Shown: in pieces, positions 22,644 to 49,304 of the stretch | Layout of the letters: each line of letters opens with the position of its first letter | Position numbering within the stretch: position 1 is the first letter of the stretch | IMG/VR virus record: IMGVR_UViG_3300029267_002377 | Span: 32,001 to 96,000 of that record | Length of the DNA: 64,000 bases | Reading direction: 5' to 3' (one strand) | From: a virus | The notes under the pieces: model-generated | The model's input: only the letters and a program-made list of their open reading frames with translations | What the model was told of the DNA's origin: nothing | The model's database searches: none | Translations under genes and position numbers: made by a program

Positions 22644-23603
22644 TTGTTACCTAATCAGATAGTTGGTGAGATTGAAAACGAACTCAACCTAGAGAAGTGG
22701 TTCCAAAAGGGTGGACCCGGCTCTGGTCACTGGGGTCATAGGGGTCGGAAGGGGAAACGAGGGGGTAGTGCTCCTTCTAGAGGGTTGGCTAAGTTGTCTG
22801 CTCCAGTTGGGAACGCTGGTGTTGAGGGTAATAGGGGAGTTGACAAGTTGCTCACTGACACCTTATTTCCTGGGGAGGAGGTAGTTACCAAACCAAAACC
22901 AGGGGATTGGGAATACGCTACTACCAATGAAAGAGCCAAACTCAAAGCCCAAGTGGCAAGAGACCTTTCTGAGGTATCTGGGGTTACAGAACAAGAAGCA
23001 GCTGACTTTGTGAGGCAGTGGGCGCACTCCTCTAACGACAACGATATGCGCTCTTTGGCTGTGCAGCAAGATGCGGCGAAGGAGTTTGGCCTTAAGACAT
23101 CGGAGTTTACTCAAGGTAAGATTGATAACATGAAAGAATACAGACAGAAACAGCTAAAAAGACTAGAGGAGGGATATACTATAGAGCAACTTGGAGTGCG
23201 ATGGGCAAGTGTAAATCCTTTGATGGAGAGTGATAAACAGCGAGCCCTCCTGAGAAGCATGTACAACGAGACACAAGCCGAACTGAAAGCGAGGGGAATT
23301 AAGGAGGTTCGGCTGTATAGGGGAGCTAGATTGCCGGATGATGGAAAATGGCCAGATAGAATCGGTGGTGCTATACCGGTTGAGACAAATGCAGTGGAGA
23401 GTTGGTCTGTTAGCGCACGTGTTGCGAGGAATTTTGCTACTCCTCAGAGTGGTGGTGACATAGGGGTGGTATTTGTAACGGTGGTTCCAGCCAATCGCAT
23501 TCTGTCAACTCCTGCAACTGGTTTTGGCTGTCTAAGAGAGGGAGAGGTTGTTGTCTTGGGGGGAATTGATGGAGATAATGCTAGAGTGGCGGGGATAAGA
23601 TGA
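22644..23603 (+). CDS. GGPGSG-motif protein with ADP-ribosyltransferase-like domain
   Basis: Shared motif, then LYRG...ESWS...EGEVVV (R-S-ExE). Confidence 0.7.
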   Translation: MLPNQIVGEIENELNLEKWFQKGGPGSGHWGHRGRKGKRGGSAPSRGLAKLSAPVGNAGVEGNRGVDKLLTDTLFPGEEVVTKPKPGDWEYATTNERAKLKAQVARDLSEVSGVTEQEAADFVRQWAHSSNDNDMRSLAVQQDAAKEFGLKTSEFTQGKIDNMKEYRQKQLKRLEEGYTIEQLGVRWASVNPLMESDKQRALLRSMYNETQAELKARGIKEVRLYRGARLPDDGKWPDRIGGAIPVETNAVESWSVSARVARNFATPQSGGDIGVVFVTVVPANRILSTPATGFGCLREGEVVVLGGIDGDNARVAGIR

Positions 23604-30013: not shown

Positions 30014-31358
30014 AGACCTCTTTGCCGAAGTAGGCGCCATACTAACTGAGATGGGCGGCCCCGGTTCTGGCCACCATGGTCACAAAGGCCGCAAAGGTAA
30101 GCGCGGTGGATCGGCCCCTTCTAAAGCTGGTGGGATTTCTAGCCCTCAACCGGTAGGTGGTGCTTGGTCTTCTTGGCACGCATTCGAGGTGGATGTTATT
30201 CAGGGGAATATAGACCCTGATTTCTCGATACAGGCTGAGGTGGATAACACTTTGTACGAGGTTAAGCTTGAAAGCTGGTGGGAAGGATGCATGGAGTCTC
30301 GAGGGTTGGGTAAAACTTCTTGGGGATCTATAGATAGGAGGTTTGAGGAGTTAATGGCAGCGGAAGCTGGTTGGGATAGGGTTGATATATCGGGTTTTAT
30401 AGATAATACCCACATAGCTCCATATGGTGCCACATACATCGGAAGAAAAGTCCTGCGGGTAAAAAGCGACTTTATCATTTCTCAAGTCGAATCCCAACTC
30501 GTTCTCAGCCCCGAAGGTGGATGGGTAGAGAAAGGCGGACCAGGAAGTGGCCATTGGGGTCACGCTGGTCGAAAAGGAAAGAGGGGAGGGAGTTTGCCGG
30601 GGGCAGTCGGCGTTCTTGGCGCTGCGGTTGTAAGCCAGTTGGAGAAGGATGGTTACGATCCGGGTATACTGGTGTCTATAGGTCGAGATGCCCGCGACCG
30701 GGGTTTTACCTCCCTTCTGGGGGATCTGCATGATGAGGTACCCGAGAATGAGTACATGAAGTATGCAGATGCCTACGCAGAAGCAAGGTTATTCACCAGC
30801 GGGGGATTTAGTGGTCAAAGCGACCCAGGATTTAGGCATGTGTCTCTCAAACGTTTCGAGAGGGACTTAGCAAATCCAGAGCGTCGGTGGATACCAAAGC
30901 AATTGGCAGCAGCAGCTATAATCAAAAGTATGGTAGAGCAAGATTTAAGAAGTACTCCTCGTTTATACCGCGGTTCAGATTGGGAGGGCTCTCTATCTGT
31001 GGGAGACAAGGTAGATTTTGGGACCTTGGGGCGTGAGTTTTCGAGCCTTAGTCCCGCTGGTGGGGCTTTTGGGGCTCGTAAATATACGTTTATTTTGGAT
31101 AACCCACAGAGAGGAGCAAACCTTAAGAATTTTTCTAATCACCCCGAGGAGAAACCTTGGTTGATAAAAGGAAACTATAAGGTATCTTCTATCAAAGGTA
31201 AAAATATTACTATAGTACCGGGTGGGGTATCTAAGAGTGATTTTATCATTTCTCAAATCGAATCCCAACTCGTTCTCAGTCCCGAAGGTGGGTGGGTGGA
31301 AGACGTGCTTGTTTCCGAACAACGGGTGGCAACATCTCTATCGAGCTTATTTGAGTGA
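30006..31358 (+). CDS. protein with two GGPGSG motifs and an ART-like domain
   Basis: Motifs at about 30054 and 30534; LYRG...FSS...HPEEK. Confidence 0.65.
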   Translation: MSRDLFAEVGAILTEMGGPGSGHHGHKGRKGKRGGSAPSKAGGISSPQPVGGAWSSWHAFEVDVIQGNIDPDFSIQAEVDNTLYEVKLESWWEGCMESRGLGKTSWGSIDRRFEELMAAEAGWDRVDISGFIDNTHIAPYGATYIGRKVLRVKSDFIISQVESQLVLSPEGGWVEKGGPGSGHWGHAGRKGKRGGSLPGAVGVLGAAVVSQLEKDGYDPGILVSIGRDARDRGFTSLLGDLHDEVPENEYMKYADAYAEARLFTSGGFSGQSDPGFRHVSLKRFERDLANPERRWIPKQLAAAAIIKSMVEQDLRSTPRLYRGSDWEGSLSVGDKVDFGTLGREFSSLSPAGGAFGARKYTFILDNPQRGANLKNFSNHPEEKPWLIKGNYKVSSIKGKNITIVPGGVSKSDFIISQIESQLVLSPEGGWVEDVLVSEQRVATSLSSLFE

Positions 31359-31585: not shown

Positions 31586-31741
31586 ATGGGCAAAGTAAAA
31601 ATCTATAACAAGCTGGGCCAGCTCACTGGCTGGCTTGTAGTACAAGTCTACTCCCCCGACCTCAAGAAGGCGAAAAAGGGATGTCCAGAAGGCGCAGACC
31701 TTGTAGAATTTCTGAAGAGTCGGGGGTTTCGTTTTGACTAG
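31586..31741 (+). CDS. 51-aa hypothetical protein, copy 2 (not in ORF track)
   Basis: Near-identical to 29849-30013. Confidence 0.7.
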   Translation: MGKVKIYNKLGQLTGWLVVQVYSPDLKKAKKGCPEGADLVEFLKSRGFRFD

Positions 31742-33503
31742 GGCTCCCGACTGGCTAGATTCTCTCCCACCAAACTGGGAGGAAAAATACGACCGAAGAC
31801 TTGTCGCAATGATTAGGGAACGGATGAACCGGGACAAATCCTTGGCCGTTCCTAAGAAGTATGCGAAGTACGTCGAGAGCATCCAAGAGTACGCCCGGGA
31901 AGTTCTCAAAGTTGAGTGGTGGGACAAACAAGTGGCGGTTGCTTTGTCATTCCAGATGAACAAATATACAATCGTCCCAGCATCGTTCGGTGTGGGCAAA
32001 ACGTTCATTGTGGGTGGGCTTATCAACTGGTGGTTCGATGTTTTTGATCCTTCGATTGCACTGACAACCGCTCCCACCTGGCCCCAAGTCGAGAAGCTTC
32101 TGTGGGGCGAAATCCGAGATCAGCGCCCAGAGGGATCTGTCGGAAAAACTTACTCTACGGAAATTAAGCACTCTGCTAAACACTACGCCCTAGGATTGTC
32201 AACCGACCGAGAGAACCGGTTTCAGGGGTTCCATGAGGAGAGGATATGTGTGGCACTCGACGAAGGTCCTGGTATCCGAGCGCCGATTTGGGACGCCGCA
32301 GTTGACAACATCCCAGTTGGACCTGATAACCGAGTTATTGCTATTGGAAACCCCCTAGAGAGATCTGGACCATTTTACGACGCTGCGAACGATCCTACCT
32401 GGCATTGTATACACATTGGTGCACTCGATCACCCCAATATACTGGCAGAACTACAAGGAGAGGATCCTCCCTTCCCAAAAGCTGTCCGGTTGGAGTGGGT
32501 GCAAGAACGAATAAGGAAGTGGTGTGCGAGAGTCTTTGACCCGCTACCAGAGCAAAAGGTAGAACTTTTTCAATTTCCTCCGGACTCGGACCAGTGGTGG
32601 AAGCCCAATCCCCTCGCAGAGTCCAAGGTCTTAGGCTGGTTCCCAAGCGAGGGGGAAGATCAAATCATTCCCATGTCTGCCGTGGACGCCGCAGTCAAAC
32701 GAGTTGAGAAACCAGGCCAGCCTGTTCGGTTCGGAATAGATGTTGCCTTCGGTGGGGGAGATGAGTCAGTGATTGCTGGGATTTTCGGACACCACGCCGA
32801 AATACTATGGACTTTTGAGGGAGCAGATGTGATGACTGTGGCTGGCCAGGCGGTTCGTCTGATTAGAAAACATCACCCTCAGGAGGTTCGGGTAGATATT
32901 ATTGGAGTAGGGTCTGGTGTACACGACAGGCTGAAGGAACTTAGTGAGCTTGGAGATCTTCCGGAAGGAGTCAAGATTCTCGAAGTCCATGTCCAGAAAC
33001 CACCTATCAATGAGAAAGACTACACGGAGGAGTTTTGGTCTTTGAGAGATCAGCTCTGGTGGATGATGCGTTTGGGTATTACGGAAATGGACTTGCCAGA
33101 TGATGAAGTTTTGCAGTCACAGATGATTGCACCAAGGTGGGGGGTGACTTCCCGGGGTAAAATTATTGTCGAGCAGAAGGACAAGATGAAGGACCGGGGA
33201 ACTAAGTCGCCAGACCGAGCAGAGGCGGTCATGTTAGCCTGGCCCGATGTGGGATTTTTCGATGGGAAGCGGTGGAGAAAATTAAAATTCTTAAGCCCGG
33301 GCATGATTGTTTCTGCTGACCGAGGAGACAGGTTTGAGCTGCGGTATTTACTTCAGCCACCCTTTACAGTTCGAGGCCCAGCTTCTGGGAGAACTTATCA
33401 CATTTTAGATAAAAAGCCATTCCCAGTGAACGAGGAAGATTTTCAACCCATGAAGGAGATGCGTTATCATACAGTTGACGGCTTCTACCCAATGTTCCGC
33501 TGA
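31734..33503 (+). CDS. terL: terminase large subunit
   Basis: Walker A ASFGVGKT, Walker B ALDEG, IGNP, nuclease GIDVA.GG.D, SPDRAEA. Confidence 0.92.
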   Translation: MTRAPDWLDSLPPNWEEKYDRRLVAMIRERMNRDKSLAVPKKYAKYVESIQEYAREVLKVEWWDKQVAVALSFQMNKYTIVPASFGVGKTFIVGGLINWWFDVFDPSIALTTAPTWPQVEKLLWGEIRDQRPEGSVGKTYSTEIKHSAKHYALGLSTDRENRFQGFHEERICVALDEGPGIRAPIWDAAVDNIPVGPDNRVIAIGNPLERSGPFYDAANDPTWHCIHIGALDHPNILAELQGEDPPFPKAVRLEWVQERIRKWCARVFDPLPEQKVELFQFPPDSDQWWKPNPLAESKVLGWFPSEGEDQIIPMSAVDAAVKRVEKPGQPVRFGIDVAFGGGDESVIAGIFGHHAEILWTFEGADVMTVAGQAVRLIRKHHPQEVRVDIIGVGSGVHDRLKELSELGDLPEGVKILEVHVQKPPINEKDYTEEFWSLRDQLWWMMRLGITEMDLPDDEVLQSQMIAPRWGVTSRGKIIVEQKDKMKDRGTKSPDRAEAVMLAWPDVGFFDGKRWRKLKFLSPGMIVSADRGDRFELRYLLQPPFTVRGPASGRTYHILDKKPFPVNEEDFQPMKEMRYHTVDGFYPMFR

Positions 33504-37016: not shown

Positions 37017-38414
37017 TTGGCCAATAAGCGCTGGACCCAAGACGAGACAAATCTACTAATCTCTATGGGAGACAACATCGAAGCATCTGGGCAGTCCTGG
37101 AGAGAAGTGGGGGAGATGTTTGGTGTCTCTGAGAGCTCTGCTCGGCAGAAGTATATTCGAGAGAGAGAAAAAAGAGGCAGGAAAGATCGGCAAACTGTCA
37201 AAAGAGATGAACGGGTTAACACTATGGTTGTTGAGGCACAGTTTGCTGGAATCAAAACTCTCGATGAGATGCTTGAAGTTTGCCAGGTAGATTTAAATGT
37301 CTGGAAGGTTGACCGGTACCTTGTAAACAAGTGGCCCGTTGGTGCTAAGGCAGCCAAAAAGGATCTTACTTGGGATGAGGGGCGTCTAACTGGTTCTGTA
37401 TACGAGGACGGACTTGTTATTGCTCCCCTGTTCCAAGTCAAAGTTTGGTTATCACGTATTGAGCCGGAACCGATCTTCCCAGTCCTCCAGCCGGTTGAGT
37501 GCAAGATTTTCAAACTTCCACAGGCATATAAGGCACGAAAAGGGGAACTGCGCAGAACGCTTATATTTTCAGATCCCCATTTTGGATTTATTCGTGATAT
37601 TACAACAGGTGAGCTTACTCCTCTCCATAACCGTGCAGTTCTAGATGTTATCCTCCAAGTAGCTCAAATAGCTGAAGTGGACCGTGTGGATGTTTTGGGG
37701 GATATGTTAGATTTGGCTGAGTGGTCTACAAAATATACAAAATCTCCAGAGTTCTGCGAAACGACTCAGCCTTCTGTACTGGAAGCTCACTGGTGGTTGT
37801 CTCAATTTCGGCAATGTTGTGAGGAGATGACTGTTTACGAAGGGAACCACGGTAAAAGGTTGCAAGATGCCATTGTCACTCACTTGAGAGCCGCTTATGA
37901 CCTCCGGCCCGCCGATGAGATGGAGATGCCACCAGCTATGAGTGTGCCCCGTCTACTAGGGTTGGACAGTTTAGAGATAGAATGGGTTGGAGATTACCCG
38001 AGTGGGGAGGTATGGTTAAATGAGTTTTTACGCTTGACCCACGGCGAGATAGCGAGAATTCCCGGAAATACTGCCAAAGCAGTTATTGAGAGTGGAGACA
38101 CGAATGAGATTTTCGGCCACACTCACAAGGTGGAGTGGGGAAGCAGAACGATACACCGCGCTAAGGAGATAAAGCAGGTTGTTGGGTTCTCACCTGGGTG
38201 TGCCTGCTGGATAGATGGCCGGGTACCTGGGTTTAGTTCAGGTCCACAGTGGCAGAATGGGTGCGCTATAGTTGATTATGAAGTCGGGGGAGAATTATTC
38301 TGGGTTTCCCCTGTTCTGATTTGTGAGGATAGGGCGATTTTCAATAAAGAACTAATTGTGGCAAGGGATCAGGTAAGTAATTTGGGGAGTAGTTATCCTG
38401 ATTGGAAATGGTAA
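37017..38414 (+). CDS. calcineurin-like metallophosphoesterase with N-terminal HTH
   Basis: SDPH, GDMLD, GNH, HG, GHTH motifs. Confidence 0.85.
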   Translation: MANKRWTQDETNLLISMGDNIEASGQSWREVGEMFGVSESSARQKYIREREKRGRKDRQTVKRDERVNTMVVEAQFAGIKTLDEMLEVCQVDLNVWKVDRYLVNKWPVGAKAAKKDLTWDEGRLTGSVYEDGLVIAPLFQVKVWLSRIEPEPIFPVLQPVECKIFKLPQAYKARKGELRRTLIFSDPHFGFIRDITTGELTPLHNRAVLDVILQVAQIAEVDRVDVLGDMLDLAEWSTKYTKSPEFCETTQPSVLEAHWWLSQFRQCCEEMTVYEGNHGKRLQDAIVTHLRAAYDLRPADEMEMPPAMSVPRLLGLDSLEIEWVGDYPSGEVWLNEFLRLTHGEIARIPGNTAKAVIESGDTNEIFGHTHKVEWGSRTIHRAKEIKQVVGFSPGCACWIDGRVPGFSSGPQWQNGCAIVDYEVGGELFWVSPVLICEDRAIFNKELIVARDQVSNLGSSYPDWKW

Positions 38415-39262
38415 TGGCTGACTTGTCTGCAGGTATTGTCAATCTAATAGAATCTTCTCTTGGTGATTTTCGGGCGATGGGAGGCCCTGGCTCAGGTCAT
38501 TGGGGACATCGAGGACGAAAGGGCAAAAGAGGTGGGTCGGCTCCCTCTAGAGCTGGAAGACTTACGCCGTTGGCGGATCTGGTTTCTCCTACCGGTTTTA
38601 CGGATATTGGTGGAATGATAGGTCGTTTAGGAGAGGAAGGCACAAAGGAGGAGATCACAGGAAGACTGTTCGCCGAGATTGGTTATAATTCACTGCCGAG
38701 TGTGGTAACGGAGAAGGAGCTAGACAGCGTTATCGGTTCTGGTGGACTGGAGATGTTTAGGGCGGAGGGAGGAGCCCGAGCGGCAGAGTACGCCGAACAG
38801 TTTAGGTCAGGTAGATTGCATACTGGGAGTGGATTTTATGCCAGCGGGGTTCATGCTGCACATGGTAGGGATGCCGAAAGCCATGCTAAACATTTTGCGA
38901 AAAGCGAGGGCGGAGTTGTCACTAGGATGGCTCTTAGTAAAGGGGCTAAAGTTGTTACAGAGGCAGAAGTTCATAGATTACACGACCAGTTTAGCAAGTT
39001 GAGAGATACCGAACTTAATAAGTTATCTGTTCGTCTTGCTAAGGACCCAACAAACAAGGATTTGGTAAGGGATATAACAGAATATTCTCGGATTTCAAAT
39101 GATGTAGCGGAGTTTGCGCGACACGATATGGCTCGGCTCCCGGCGTTGTTGGGTTATGATGCTATTCAAGGTTTAGATGGGCAAGGGTTGCCTGAGACGA
39201 TTATATTGAACAGGGGCAAGGTATATGTATCTGATACAAGTACAACGGTGCCGCGAGAGTAG
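38402..39262 (+). CDS. GGPGSG-motif protein with ART-like domain
   Basis: MFRA...GSGFYASG...LGYDAI...IILNR; paralogous to 33475. Confidence 0.6.
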   Translation: MEMVMADLSAGIVNLIESSLGDFRAMGGPGSGHWGHRGRKGKRGGSAPSRAGRLTPLADLVSPTGFTDIGGMIGRLGEEGTKEEITGRLFAEIGYNSLPSVVTEKELDSVIGSGGLEMFRAEGGARAAEYAEQFRSGRLHTGSGFYASGVHAAHGRDAESHAKHFAKSEGGVVTRMALSKGAKVVTEAEVHRLHDQFSKLRDTELNKLSVRLAKDPTNKDLVRDITEYSRISNDVAEFARHDMARLPALLGYDAIQGLDGQGLPETIILNRGKVYVSDTSTTVPRE

Positions 39263-39274
39263 GAGACTTTTTGA

Positions 39275-39877
39275 GTGGCTGACGAAGAACTGTGGGACCG
39301 AATAGATGAGATCCTAGACGACTCAGAAGAGTTTTGGTCAATAGACGTTTCTGACGAACTCATTGCAGCGTTAACTCTGGCTTACTTAGACGGGCTAGAA
39401 GGGGCAGCAGAGTACATCGGAGAGCTGGCTGGGGTAGCAATTGAGTTGGCTTTTGACCTGGTAGATCCTGTTGCTCTGGAATTTATTCAAGACAGAGCAG
39501 CAGAGATGGTTCGAAACGTCAACAGAGGAACCAAACACTACCTCCGCACTATGATCTACAACGGTCTCCAAGAAGGGATCCCCGAACAAGACCTGATAGA
39601 CGGAATTTTTAAAAATTTATTCGAGCAGAGCGAGTTTAGTGAGCAAAGGATCCGCTCGATCACTCGGTTTGAAATTGCTCGTGCCCAGTCTTCTGCTTGG
39701 GAAAAGCAGATGGACGAAGTCGGCCTTGAAACAAAGCGATGGGTGACCATTGGAGCGGACGCATGTGAGGTCTGTAAGGCTAATGAGGCGATGGGTCCCC
39801 AGCCGGTTAACTCGAAGACCTTTGATAACGTTTTTGGAGAAAAGTGTGGTGGGCCGCCAGCTCACCCGAACGTCTGA
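39275..39877 (+). CDS. MuF/SPP1 gp7-like head morphogenesis protein (in-frame TGA inside the HPNxCRC motif)
   Basis: RI..ITRFE.ARA, KRWVT..DAC.VC..N, PPAHPN; continues in frame as *RCHL into 39887-40666. Confidence 0.85.
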   Translation: MADEELWDRIDEILDDSEEFWSIDVSDELIAALTLAYLDGLEGAAEYIGELAGVAIELAFDLVDPVALEFIQDRAAEMVRNVNRGTKHYLRTMIYNGLQEGIPEQDLIDGIFKNLFEQSEFSEQRIRSITRFEIARAQSSAWEKQMDEVGLETKRWVTIGADACEVCKANEAMGPQPVNSKTFDNVFGEKCGGPPAHPNV

Positions 39878-39886
39878 AGGTGCCAC

Positions 39887-40666
39887 TTGGCAGCGACTCC
39901 GTCGGAGATCGCAGGGTTAGGAAAAGAGATTGAATTCTACGTAGGCAAGTCAGAGGTTGAGAAAGGCGGGCCTGGAAGTGGTCATTGGGGTCACAAAGGG
40001 CGCAAGGGCAGGAGAGGGGGAAGTGCTCCCAGTAAGGCGCCCGCTGTTGTGGGAAAGGTTAGTACTGTTGATTGGACTGATGACAACTATAGGAGTAAGT
40101 TTGAGGAGGCTACTGGTGGGCACCGTGTGGGTTCGCGTGTTACAAAGAACCAAGCTACTGAGATAGCATACAGTCTGCAAGGGATGCCTCAACCCGATAC
40201 TGAGGTTACTTTTATCACAACAAAAACCCAAGAAGAATTCGATCGCGTATATGGAGGTTCGGCTAGGGGTTGCGCTGGATTTTACAGGGTGTACACAGAT
40301 GAAATTGTTTTTGGGCCGCAAACATCTGCTAACCTAGACACACCTCAGGGGTTTGCCAGTTATGGCACAGTTTGGCATGAGTGGGGACATGCGCTGGATT
40401 ACACACTGAGTGAAACGAAGGGAGTGGCTAAGTCATCCAAGGTGATTCGGGCAAAAGATAATCCGTACGACCGAGCCTGGCTTTTTGATCGGTTTCCTAC
40501 GAACTATGCAAAGAAAACAGAGCGGGAATTCTTTGCAGAGAGTATAGAATGTGTGAAAAGGTACTCGAATAAAAGGGAAGTGGGTTTCTATAAGCATTAT
40601 TTTCCGGAATCACATGAGATGGTGGGAGCTGTCCTTGGTGATAGAATGCCGGAGGAGTGGAAGTGA
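39887..40666 (+). CDS. GGPGSG motif + zincin metallopeptidase; probable C-terminal extension of MuF
   Basis: HEWGH...TNYA...EFFAES; same frame as MuF; no clear RBS before the TTG. Confidence 0.75.
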   Translation: MAATPSEIAGLGKEIEFYVGKSEVEKGGPGSGHWGHKGRKGRRGGSAPSKAPAVVGKVSTVDWTDDNYRSKFEEATGGHRVGSRVTKNQATEIAYSLQGMPQPDTEVTFITTKTQEEFDRVYGGSARGCAGFYRVYTDEIVFGPQTSANLDTPQGFASYGTVWHEWGHALDYTLSETKGVAKSSKVIRAKDNPYDRAWLFDRFPTNYAKKTEREFFAESIECVKRYSNKREVGFYKHYFPESHEMVGAVLGDRMPEEWK

Positions 40667-40908
40667 AGGTATATAGACTAGATGGTGAATATGCTGCAAC
40701 TGTGGATATCGCCCCAGATCAGGTTGTGGTAACTGGTCCTTTTGAGGAGGATGTAACTGAGATTATCAATACATCCCGCGAGGTTACTTCTGAGGTTTTG
40801 GAGTCTGAGGAGGGGCTAGGGGATAATATGTTGTGGTTGGAGGGGGGCTCTCTGGAGAACGCTGAGGAGTTTTTGCAGAATCCTGGCAGGTGGGGGTATA
40901 AGGTGTGA
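40657..40908 (+). CDS. small acidic hypothetical protein coupled to the peptidase gene
   Basis: GGAGGAG RBS; overlapping stop/start. Confidence 0.65.
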   Translation: MEVKVYRLDGEYAATVDIAPDQVVVTGPFEEDVTEIINTSREVTSEVLESEEGLGDNMLWLEGGSLENAEEFLQNPGRWGYKV

Positions 40909-43258: not shown

Positions 43259-44856
43259 GTGGAACTCTTGGTTCCTACGATTACCGATATCGTGACCAAG
43301 AGTGCCGCCGACATCGCAGGTCGTCGTGAACCTGCCGAAGGTCCGAACATCGAGGACATTGTTGCTAGGGCCGTGTTACAGGTGCGAGAGGCTAAGGGCG
43401 GCGAGGACTTGACCATGACCGAGATGCAGCAGGTTGCTCAGTCTGTTTATGAGAACCTGAACCAGCCGGAGCCGGAAGGCGATCCCGCTGTGGAAGTCAT
43501 CAAGGGAATGGTTGAGAAGACCCAAACCGACCCAAATATCCTGCCTCAGCCCTATACGCAGCCCGCAGACTTCTCTAACCAGTATCCTCAGCCTCTAGAT
43601 CCGACTGAGGTTTTGGACATGTGTGAGGAGATCACAGTCTGGAAGACGTTGCCTGAAGTGGTGACCGATTACAACTCAGATAGCTGGCGAGAGATGACCA
43701 GCCTGAGCTTCGACACCACGGGGGAGGCGTCCCATGGCTTCTTCACTAAAGGAGCTTGTCCGGACGAGACCACGCATGAGGGTGAGACGACTACAATTGC
43801 CCGCAAGTACATCGGCAGTTATGAGTCTATCACCTACGAGGACTTACGTCACTCGATAGCAGTCGCACGCGCGCAGGGATTGGGGATCAGCCGACTTTCT
43901 CTAGACTCTGGAATCGAAACAGTGATCGGAGTCAAAGAGAAGATGATGAAACTCCAGGAAGTGACTGTGCTGAACAAGTGGGACCTCGCCCTGGTCAAGG
44001 GAGCAATCGCTACAGTTGCGAACGCTTTCGACGGGATCGAGACCCAAGTCACATCTGCAAACGGTGCGCGGACCAACAGCAACCCGACCGGGACCTATGA
44101 CGAGGAAGAGTTCGACAACTTCCTCGCTGCTGGGTGTGCAAGACCCACCCACATCTTCGGTCACCCCAAAGCTCTCCGAGCCATCGCTATCGGCTACCTG
44201 AGCTTGGGCGCCACCGGAGGGACACAGCCCGTCCAAATGATCCAGATCAACCAGGACCGCGGAGGCATCGTGGCTGGCTTCACGCTAGCTCCGAGAATCC
44301 AGACGTTCGTAGGAGAGTTGATCCTGGTTCCGGACTTCCGGTTCACTGCCACGACGACGGGGGCAGATATATTTAGCTCGACGGTGTATCCATTAAGAGT
44401 TTATCATAATGGAGAACCTATTGTGTATAAGAGTACACAAACACCATTAAGTTATGTAGATCTGCCAAGAGGCTGTACAGCTTTTGCCTTTGAAATCTAC
44501 GCGGTGACTGCACTAGTGATAAACGCTTTGTCACTTAACTCCGTGAATTCGGCGAAACTCCCACTGGGACAACGCCGAGCCAAGCCAGAAGGGAAACTTT
44601 TTGGTGGGTGTAGAGACTAGGAGTGCGCCTGAACCGAGAGGTATGGCAATAATTCTCCCACGAGCGCGGGGCGTTCAGAAATGAGCGAAGACATAGTCCG
44701 AGCTTACTGGTAACAGTAAGAAATAGAGGGTTAAACACCTTTATGATAACAAAGATATTTAGAAAGCATATGTGTGCGCAAGCCGCCTACACGGCAAGCT
44801 TTGCAGGTCACCTTGGCACCGGCTGCAGCATCGTCGGGGGCACTTCATTCACCTAG
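43259..44856 (+). CDS. major capsid protein, spliced (exons 43259-44520 and 44763-44856; 451 aa)
   Basis: AGGAGGT RBS, ALVKG...AFDGI motif, head-module position. Splicing restores ...TALVI-KHMCAQAAY...TSFT*. Confidence 0.85.
44521..44762 (+). mobile_element. group I self-splicing intron without ORF (242 nt)
   Basis: P1 AGTGAT/GTCACT with U-G at the splice site; P10 GCTTT/AAAGC; P GAATTCGGCGAAAC, Q AACGCCGAGC, R GTAGAGACTA, S AAGACATAGTCC; terminal G. Confidence 0.92.
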
Positions 44857-49226: not shown

Positions 49227-49304
49227 CGCCAGAAGCAGGATTCGAACCTGCACGCCCGTATTCAGGCACACTCTCGTGCTCGTCTACCGTTCCGACATTC
49301 TGAC
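49227..49304 (-). ncRNA. class II tRNA-like RNA lacking a normal anticodon loop
   Basis: Acceptor GTCAGAA/TTCTGGC, D arm TCG-GAACGGTAGA-CGA, variable arm GCCTG-AATA-CGGGC, T arm GCAGG-TTCGAAT-CCTGC; anticodon arm reduced to CAC-GAGA-GTG. Confidence 0.8.

Follow-up and report, generated by a model that had tools for sequence, protein, structure and literature searches.

An old in-frame UGA at a conserved cysteine column of a phage MuF gene is best read as a recoded, possibly selenocysteine, codon

Does the stop codon inside this phage head gene end a protein, or is it read as an amino acid? The window, a 64,000-nucleotide stretch of a viral genome, holds on its plus strand an ORF of 200 amino acids related to the MuF head proteins (39275–39877), and the frame of this ORF is shared by the next 262 codons, which run to a TGA at 40664–40666. 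Between the two stands an in-frame TGA at codon 201 (39875–39877), which is seen directly in the sequence: positions 39863–39889 read CAC CCG AAC GTC TGA AGG TGC CAC TTG (H P N V * R C H L). Codons 1–200 (39275–39874) encode the MuF core, with a GTG start after AGGAG and a CEVC motif at 39764–39775, and the TGA occupies the first Cys column of the motif HPxxC[RH]C. The codons behind it (39878–39946; RCHL...EIEFYVG) encode a MuF tail and include the second Cys codon of the motif at 39881–39883. The initial annotation had described a TGA within HPNV-TGA-RCHL followed by a long open frame, and both are confirmed here. An open frame past a stop is not in itself unusual in this genome, since two more pairs of ORFs share a frame (around 16688 and 37011); these are ordinary neighbours, each with its own strong ribosome sites.

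TGA terminates 20 of the 44 long plus-strand ORFs, and only a short open stretch follows each of them. Thus, TGA works as a normal stop codon at other sites of the genome, as had been noted at the outset, and genome-wide recoding of TGA is ruled out. Similarly, a frameshift, intron or intein at the TGA is ruled out, as the aligned sequences correspond colinearly, codon by codon. No suppressor or Sec tRNA was found in the phage by ARAGORN, and the best match to tRNA-Sec reached 22 bits against a cut-off of 47. A local scan identified a tRNA-like element that ARAGORN had missed (49227–49304, minus strand; 31.9 bits on the Rfam tRNA model, cut-off 29). The acceptor, D and T arms of this element are good, but the place of the anticodon arm is taken by a pair of short hairpins, of which one has a GAGA loop. 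With no usable anticodon arm, it is ruled out as a Sec or suppressor tRNA.

The gene lies within the head module of a complete virus record of 108,853 bp with direct terminal repeats (DTR). This genome encodes its own polymerase and helicases, and its DNA polymerase and TerL are only 25–33% identical to those of known phages. The MuF gene follows TerL (31734–33503) and precedes the putative major capsid gene (43259–44620, plus strand). A group I intron was found at the 3' end of the capsid gene (44392–44720, plus strand; Rfam RF00028, 63.8 bits, E 7e-14), and the ORF-derived C-terminus of the capsid protein is therefore probably wrong. A search for a similar MuF in cultured phages found none, and a pattern scan of genome contigs for a prophage copy or a clue to the host returned 13 chance matches and no MuF.

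Assignment of the gene to the MuF family proceeds through its relatives. The 200-aa piece matches PHROG 2468 and 2662, families of head-morphogenesis and portal-MuF proteins, at E about 1e-13. The PF04233 model (Phage_Mu_F) did not match the 200-aa form or the 226-aa read-through form even at E 5, and found nothing in a six-frame search of the genome. A phmmer search with the MuF piece yielded 1501 matches, and 72 of the 82 relatives that were aligned match PF04233. When a profile of these 82 homologues was run against the genome it returned a single match, at 39281–39907 (E 2.4e-63), with one TGA inside. Thus, this is the only MuF of the phage, and the homology continues through the stop. On this transitive homology, drawn from sequence comparison, the gene is a member of the MuF family that is too divergent for Pfam's model.

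The stop falls on a near-invariant position of that family. At the TGA column, 77 of 81 homologues carry Cys, two carry Glu and one carries Asp, in agreement with the early suggestion that the TGA sits where the first Cys of a MuF ending is expected. The next Cys (residue 203) is conserved in 80 of 81 homologues and the upstream Cys 167 in all 81. While the family consensus is PPAHPNCRC, the clade of the window has one extra residue and the form HPxxC[RH]C. The C-terminal motif of the family is present in the window as CEVC (residues 164–167) and HPNV-UGA-RC (197–203), the sole departure being the UGA at the first Cys, and the codons straight after the TGA (R-C-H-L) are those of the family consensus. 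Stand-alone MuF proteins end about 25 residues past the CxC with ...EL.VW.G[DE], where the ...EIEFYVG of the window aligns. The upstream CxxC and the C-terminal CxC look like a site that could hold four ligands. The Glu and Asp found at the TGA column fit a metal ligand and count against a residue that is obligatorily Sec or Cys. Selenocysteine has a precedent as a metal ligand in formate dehydrogenases and [NiFeSe] hydrogenases.

In addition to the alignment, structure prediction indicates that the domain extends past the stop. The AF2 model of the 226-residue read-through form has a mean pLDDT of 85.7, with residues 190–210 at 92–93, and places a strand (204–206) and a helix (209–214) behind the TGA. 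A product of 200 amino acids would therefore be missing one conserved Cys and some of the fold. When the MuF model was compared with the PDB by Foldseek, no matching fold turned up.

We then asked of the available relatives how old the stop is. Identical copies of the 200-aa product are known from 7 JGI contigs and 4 ENA/Logan contigs, and its presence on 11 contigs from three sources excludes an assembly error as the origin of the TGA. The same TGA in the same frame is also present in L007, a second metagenome contig that is 96% identical in amino acid sequence and differs by about 10% in DNA. Over the first 200 codons, 58 differ between the window and L007, with 50 synonymous and 8 non-synonymous changes; over codons 202–253 there are 20 synonymous and 3 non-synonymous changes. 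The synonymous excess before and after the TGA indicates the same purifying selection on both sides of it. Codons 198–213 are unchanged between the two sequences, a run that is not significant, as an unchanged run of 20 codons is also found at 141–160.

Beyond this pair, ten 90%-identity protein clusters that are 59–96% identical to the window end at exactly the TGA column; the stop was read as TGA in the window and L007, and the other eight lineages (ENA/Logan) are known from their protein ends alone. The endings are HPNV (window and P0015), HPHL (P0167), HPNL (P0168 and P0171), HPNF (P0169), HPNI (P0170), HPRH (P0017), HPRY (P0174) and HPNY (P0176). Because the residue ahead of the stop varies among V, L, F, I, H and Y, the region has diverged and the stop has stayed put. 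Other members of the same clade read on, with Cys in P0172 and P0173 (HPNYCRCHL...) and Glu in P0003 and P0175 (HPN[VL]ERCHL...), and the outgroups all have Cys at this column. P0003 is a stop-free fusion of MuF, tag and cargo, and the expectation of a Cys in this closest fused relative did not hold, since its residue at the TGA column is Glu. The possibility that all close relatives have Cys was likewise reversed: ten clusters keep the stop, and sister lineages have Cys or Glu. Scans of IMG/VR with the protein, the alignment and a DNA pattern of the window type returned no relatives. The UGA is real, old and under selection; it lies at a Cys column, and coding continues past it.

A TGA at this position is not confined to the clade of the window. 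A scan of IMG/VR for PxHPN-TGA-RC found nine stretches, two of which are true MuF genes (L039, 2331–2333, plus strand; L040, 1990–1992, minus strand), and the stricter pattern PPxHPN-TGA-RC found nothing in IMG/VR. L039 and L040 are unrelated MuFs with TGA at the first Cys of HPNCRC, and in both the PF04233 match spans the TGA; in L039, the 10 codons behind the TGA make up a normal MuF end. Additionally, P0165, a distant 50%-cluster representative, ends at the TGA column too. As a control, we scanned for TGA at the second Cys, and this yielded L046 (IMGVR_UViG_3300037190_000890, minus strand near 681–704), a MuF with a single in-frame TGA (HPNCR-TGA-TWIP), at least 226 open codons behind it and a 10-bp hairpin that begins 1 nt past the TGA. 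Since the TGA of L046 is at the second Cys, sporadic nonsense mutation of TGY to TGA is possible for MuF cases known from a single contig. Ranked among the TGA sites of its own locus, the downstream fold lies at 0.19 in L039, 0.10 in L040 and 0.024 in L046. Taken with the rank of 0.017 for the window, which is genome-wide, these values are suggestive, and the hairpins are unlike one another.

In the window, the candidate bacterial SECIS or read-through stimulator is a hairpin at 39893–39912 whose stem of 8 bp has a single A bulged out and is capped by a GUC loop. It begins 15 nt downstream of the TGA, and the G of the loop lies 23 nt after the TGA; the hairpin thus folds as the initial annotation described it, SECIS-like, with GU first in the loop. 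Against shuffles of its own sequence the hairpin is unremarkable (z = -1.2). Among the 3716 TGA triplets of the genome, 1.7% are followed by 45 nt with an equally stable fold; behind 0.8% of them lies a hairpin of 8 bp or more whose loop is of the GU type and 16–37 nt away. The hairpin matched no Rfam family. Its sequence is identical in the window and L007, the only two DNAs compared, and so provides no covariation evidence.

Taken together, these features are best read as recoding of the UGA, most likely as selenocysteine, a reading to which we would give even chances on the sequence evidence. Sec is the best single reading because of the pairing of Cys with TGA, the position of the hairpin and the GU in its loop. 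The usual criterion by which selenoproteins are identified is a pairing of TGA with Cys in homologues (PMC9312934). Under this reading, positions 39275–40666 would form one gene of 463 codons, comprising a MuF core of the SPP1 gp7 / Mu F type, its tail, a Gly/Lys-rich tag and a swappable zincin-like cargo. Most ribosomes would stop at codon 201 and release a tail-less MuF of 200 amino acids, while a fraction would decode the UGA, most likely as Sec through the SelB of the host acting at the hairpin. Decoding would give the full MuF-tag-cargo protein of 463 amino acids with its zincin, which would be built into the head in few copies. What is inferred here is which residue is inserted, what the hairpin does and in what ratio the two products arise. 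The earlier proposal that Sec insertion or programmed read-through produces a long, toxin-bearing MuF is supported by the conservation of the stop, by L007 and by the fold past the TGA.

The arrangement has much in common with bacterial selenoprotein genes that are decoded through SelB and a SECIS element, of which E. coli fdhF is the prototype. As in those genes, there is an in-frame UGA at a Cys column with Cys homologues, the coding sequence on both sides is conserved between the window and L007, and a hairpin with GU in its apical loop lies close behind. In contrast to bacterial selenoproteins, the protein here belongs to a lytic-type phage and is a virion assembly protein, not a redox enzyme, and some homologues have Glu or Asp at the UGA site. 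Compared with bacterial SECIS elements the hairpin is short, with 8 bp and a 3-nt loop.

Directly behind the MuF tail is the tag (39947–40024), KSEVEK plus GGPGSGHWGHKGRKGRRGGS (GGPGSGHWGH). This is one of eight copies of GGPGSG[HN]xGHxGRKGxRGGS in the genome, of which seven are in the window (22710, 28211, 30054, 30534, 33550, 38480 and 39965) and one lies outside it, at genome position 6211. Each copy has a leader of roughly 17–30 amino acids ahead of it and a different domain behind. Two of the cargo leaders (30480–30533 and 22650–22709) end in ...LVLSPEGGWVEK-tag and ...LNLEKWFQK-tag, and both resemble the MuF tail (39890–39964, ...EIEFYVGKSEVEK-tag) as well as the ends of stand-alone MuFs (...ELTVWEGE). 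These cargo leaders might dock on a MuF core that lacks its tail. Immediately ahead of MuF, a gene with a leader and tag at its start (38402–39262, plus strand) is another tagged cargo; it overlaps the end of a metallophosphoesterase gene (37017–38414) and had no match in Pfam or PHROG.

The cargo domain behind the MuF tag (40025–40666, ending at the TGA at 40664–40666) is zincin-like, with HEWGH at 40376–40390. It had no direct match in Pfam, and a relative with 31% identity (P0004) carries a precomputed match to PF07737. Directly past the tag, L007 has an unrelated cargo of the ADP-ribosyltransferase type (PF03496). This swap right behind the tag indicates that the tag-coding DNA may be a recombination joint. 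The ORF list also contains a small acidic ORF of 83 amino acids (40657–40908, plus strand) that overlaps the stop of the cargo and is a candidate cognate inhibitor of it.

Two known groups of head proteins come close to this gene. With MuF, SPP1 gp7 and Mu F (PF04233) it shares the homology of the core, the CxxC...HPxxCxC end, the position between terminase and capsid and the single copy, and it differs from them in having UGA as the first Cys codon and a tag and cargo behind the domain. In the MuF polymorphic toxins of temperate phages (Jamet et al. 2017, PMC5576092), a MuF N-terminus likewise precedes a toxin-like C-terminal domain that varies. As in those toxins, close relatives have exchanged their cargo (a zincin here, the ADP-ribosyltransferase type in L007) and a small ORF follows. 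However, a fusion of MuF to a variable C-terminal toxin-like domain holds here only if the UGA is decoded, and there are eight tag-bearing cargo modules rather than one. Unlike the temperate phages of that study, the present phage has a DTR genome of 109 kb and replication genes of its own. Stop codons and cysteines receive no mention in the MuF-toxin paper (PMC5576092).

Selenium need not be involved if termination at the UGA is leaky by design. A near-cognate tRNA (Trp or Cys) would read the UGA at a low rate, perhaps aided by the hairpin, so that short MuF and long MuF-cargo are made in a fixed proportion; the A1 read-through protein of Q-beta is a parallel. In both systems, the few ribosomes that read the UGA would produce a virion protein of low copy number that is extended at its C-terminus. 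We regard this as unlikely, yet it draws on the same conservation evidence as selenocysteine, dispenses with special host machinery and agrees with a hairpin that is small and only moderately unusual; a design with two products also suits a toxin-bearing head protein of low copy number. What leaky termination leaves without a reason is the placement of the stop exactly on a near-invariant Cys, both in this clade and in MuFs unrelated to it. The fold would probably suffer from a Trp at a ligand position, and a stop located where the domain gives way to the cargo would have been better placed. The UGA of Q-beta is the natural end of a complete coat protein, whereas the UGA here is inside the domain and on a conserved Cys.

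A conserved split gene is likewise improbable in our judgment. The core would then be finished at 200 amino acids and the cargo translated separately, by coupling or re-initiation at the TTG at 39887–39889, which encodes the L of RCHL; the cargo may dock on the core through its leader, which is like a MuF tail. This TTG lies 4 codons past the stop, behind a GAAGGTG that overlaps the TGA. Gene callers start a product of 259 amino acids (P0002/P0013) at TTG 39887, and P0180, from a lineage of 59% identity, begins at the TTG column. Additionally, the part behind the stop is built of leader, tag and cargo, like the seven tagged proteins encoded elsewhere in the genome, and adjacent genes share a frame by chance in one third of cases. 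However, the called starts vary by lineage, being at column 205 in three and at an ATG 16 codons past the stop in P0006 and P0178, and GAAGGTG is a weak SD-like sequence compared with the strong AAGGAGGT of many genes in this phage. The three codons that separate the stop from the TTG (R-C-H) have kept to the family consensus, and a core ending at the stop would lose the conserved Cys, the strand and the helix that are confidently modelled. A split gene also fails to explain L039, which has just 10 codons behind its TGA.

Returning to selenocysteine, a more elaborate version of this reading makes the UGA both a Sec codon and a gate, such that selenium supply or SelB activity would set which effectors are loaded into the head. 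Here, termination would leave a core that accepts, in trans, the MuF-tail-like leaders of the seven other tagged cargos, and Sec insertion would produce the covalent MuF-cargo. We consider the gate a long shot. Finally, although a single base change turns TGY into TGA, a sequencing or assembly error or a recently inactivated pseudogene is highly improbable given the TGA in an independent contig with about 10% DNA divergence, the product on 11 contigs from three sources, the stop in ten lineages down to 59% identity, the purifying selection on both halves and the lack of a second MuF in the genome.

If the UGA encodes Sec, the gene would represent a bacteriophage selenoprotein family that is structural rather than redox. 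The virus selenoproteins found in the literature that was searched come from two poxviruses only, GPx1 of molluscum contagiosum virus and GPx4 of fowlpox virus, the latter with its SECIS element in the coding region (PMC8310308). What the phage gene would share with these is a virus-encoded UGA-Sec gene; the poxvirus proteins are captured host redox enzymes of eukaryotic viruses, whereas the protein here is a phage structural protein and the mechanism would be bacterial. In the bacterial selenoprotein papers found by literature search, there was no phage selenoprotein or phage selenoprotein family. With a Sec codon at this site, phage infectivity and the delivery of effectors would be linked to the selenium machinery of the host, which would provide a new marker for host prediction. 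It would also mean that gene callers systematically split such MuF genes, so that their relatives appear in databases as a 200-aa fragment and an orphan cargo. Even if the UGA is read through without selenium or divides two genes, keeping a stop at one codon down to 59% identity is an uncommon way to express a head protein that bears a toxin.

A different use of TGA was observed in MuF genes of eight further IMG/VR phage contigs (L042, L043, L045 and L051–L055) that the control scan for TGA at the second Cys returned, with a low GC content of 26–34%. These genes are full of in-frame TGA codons at positions where relatives have Gly. In these eight contigs TGA probably encodes Gly (code 25), as in phages of Gracilibacteria or Absconditabacteria.
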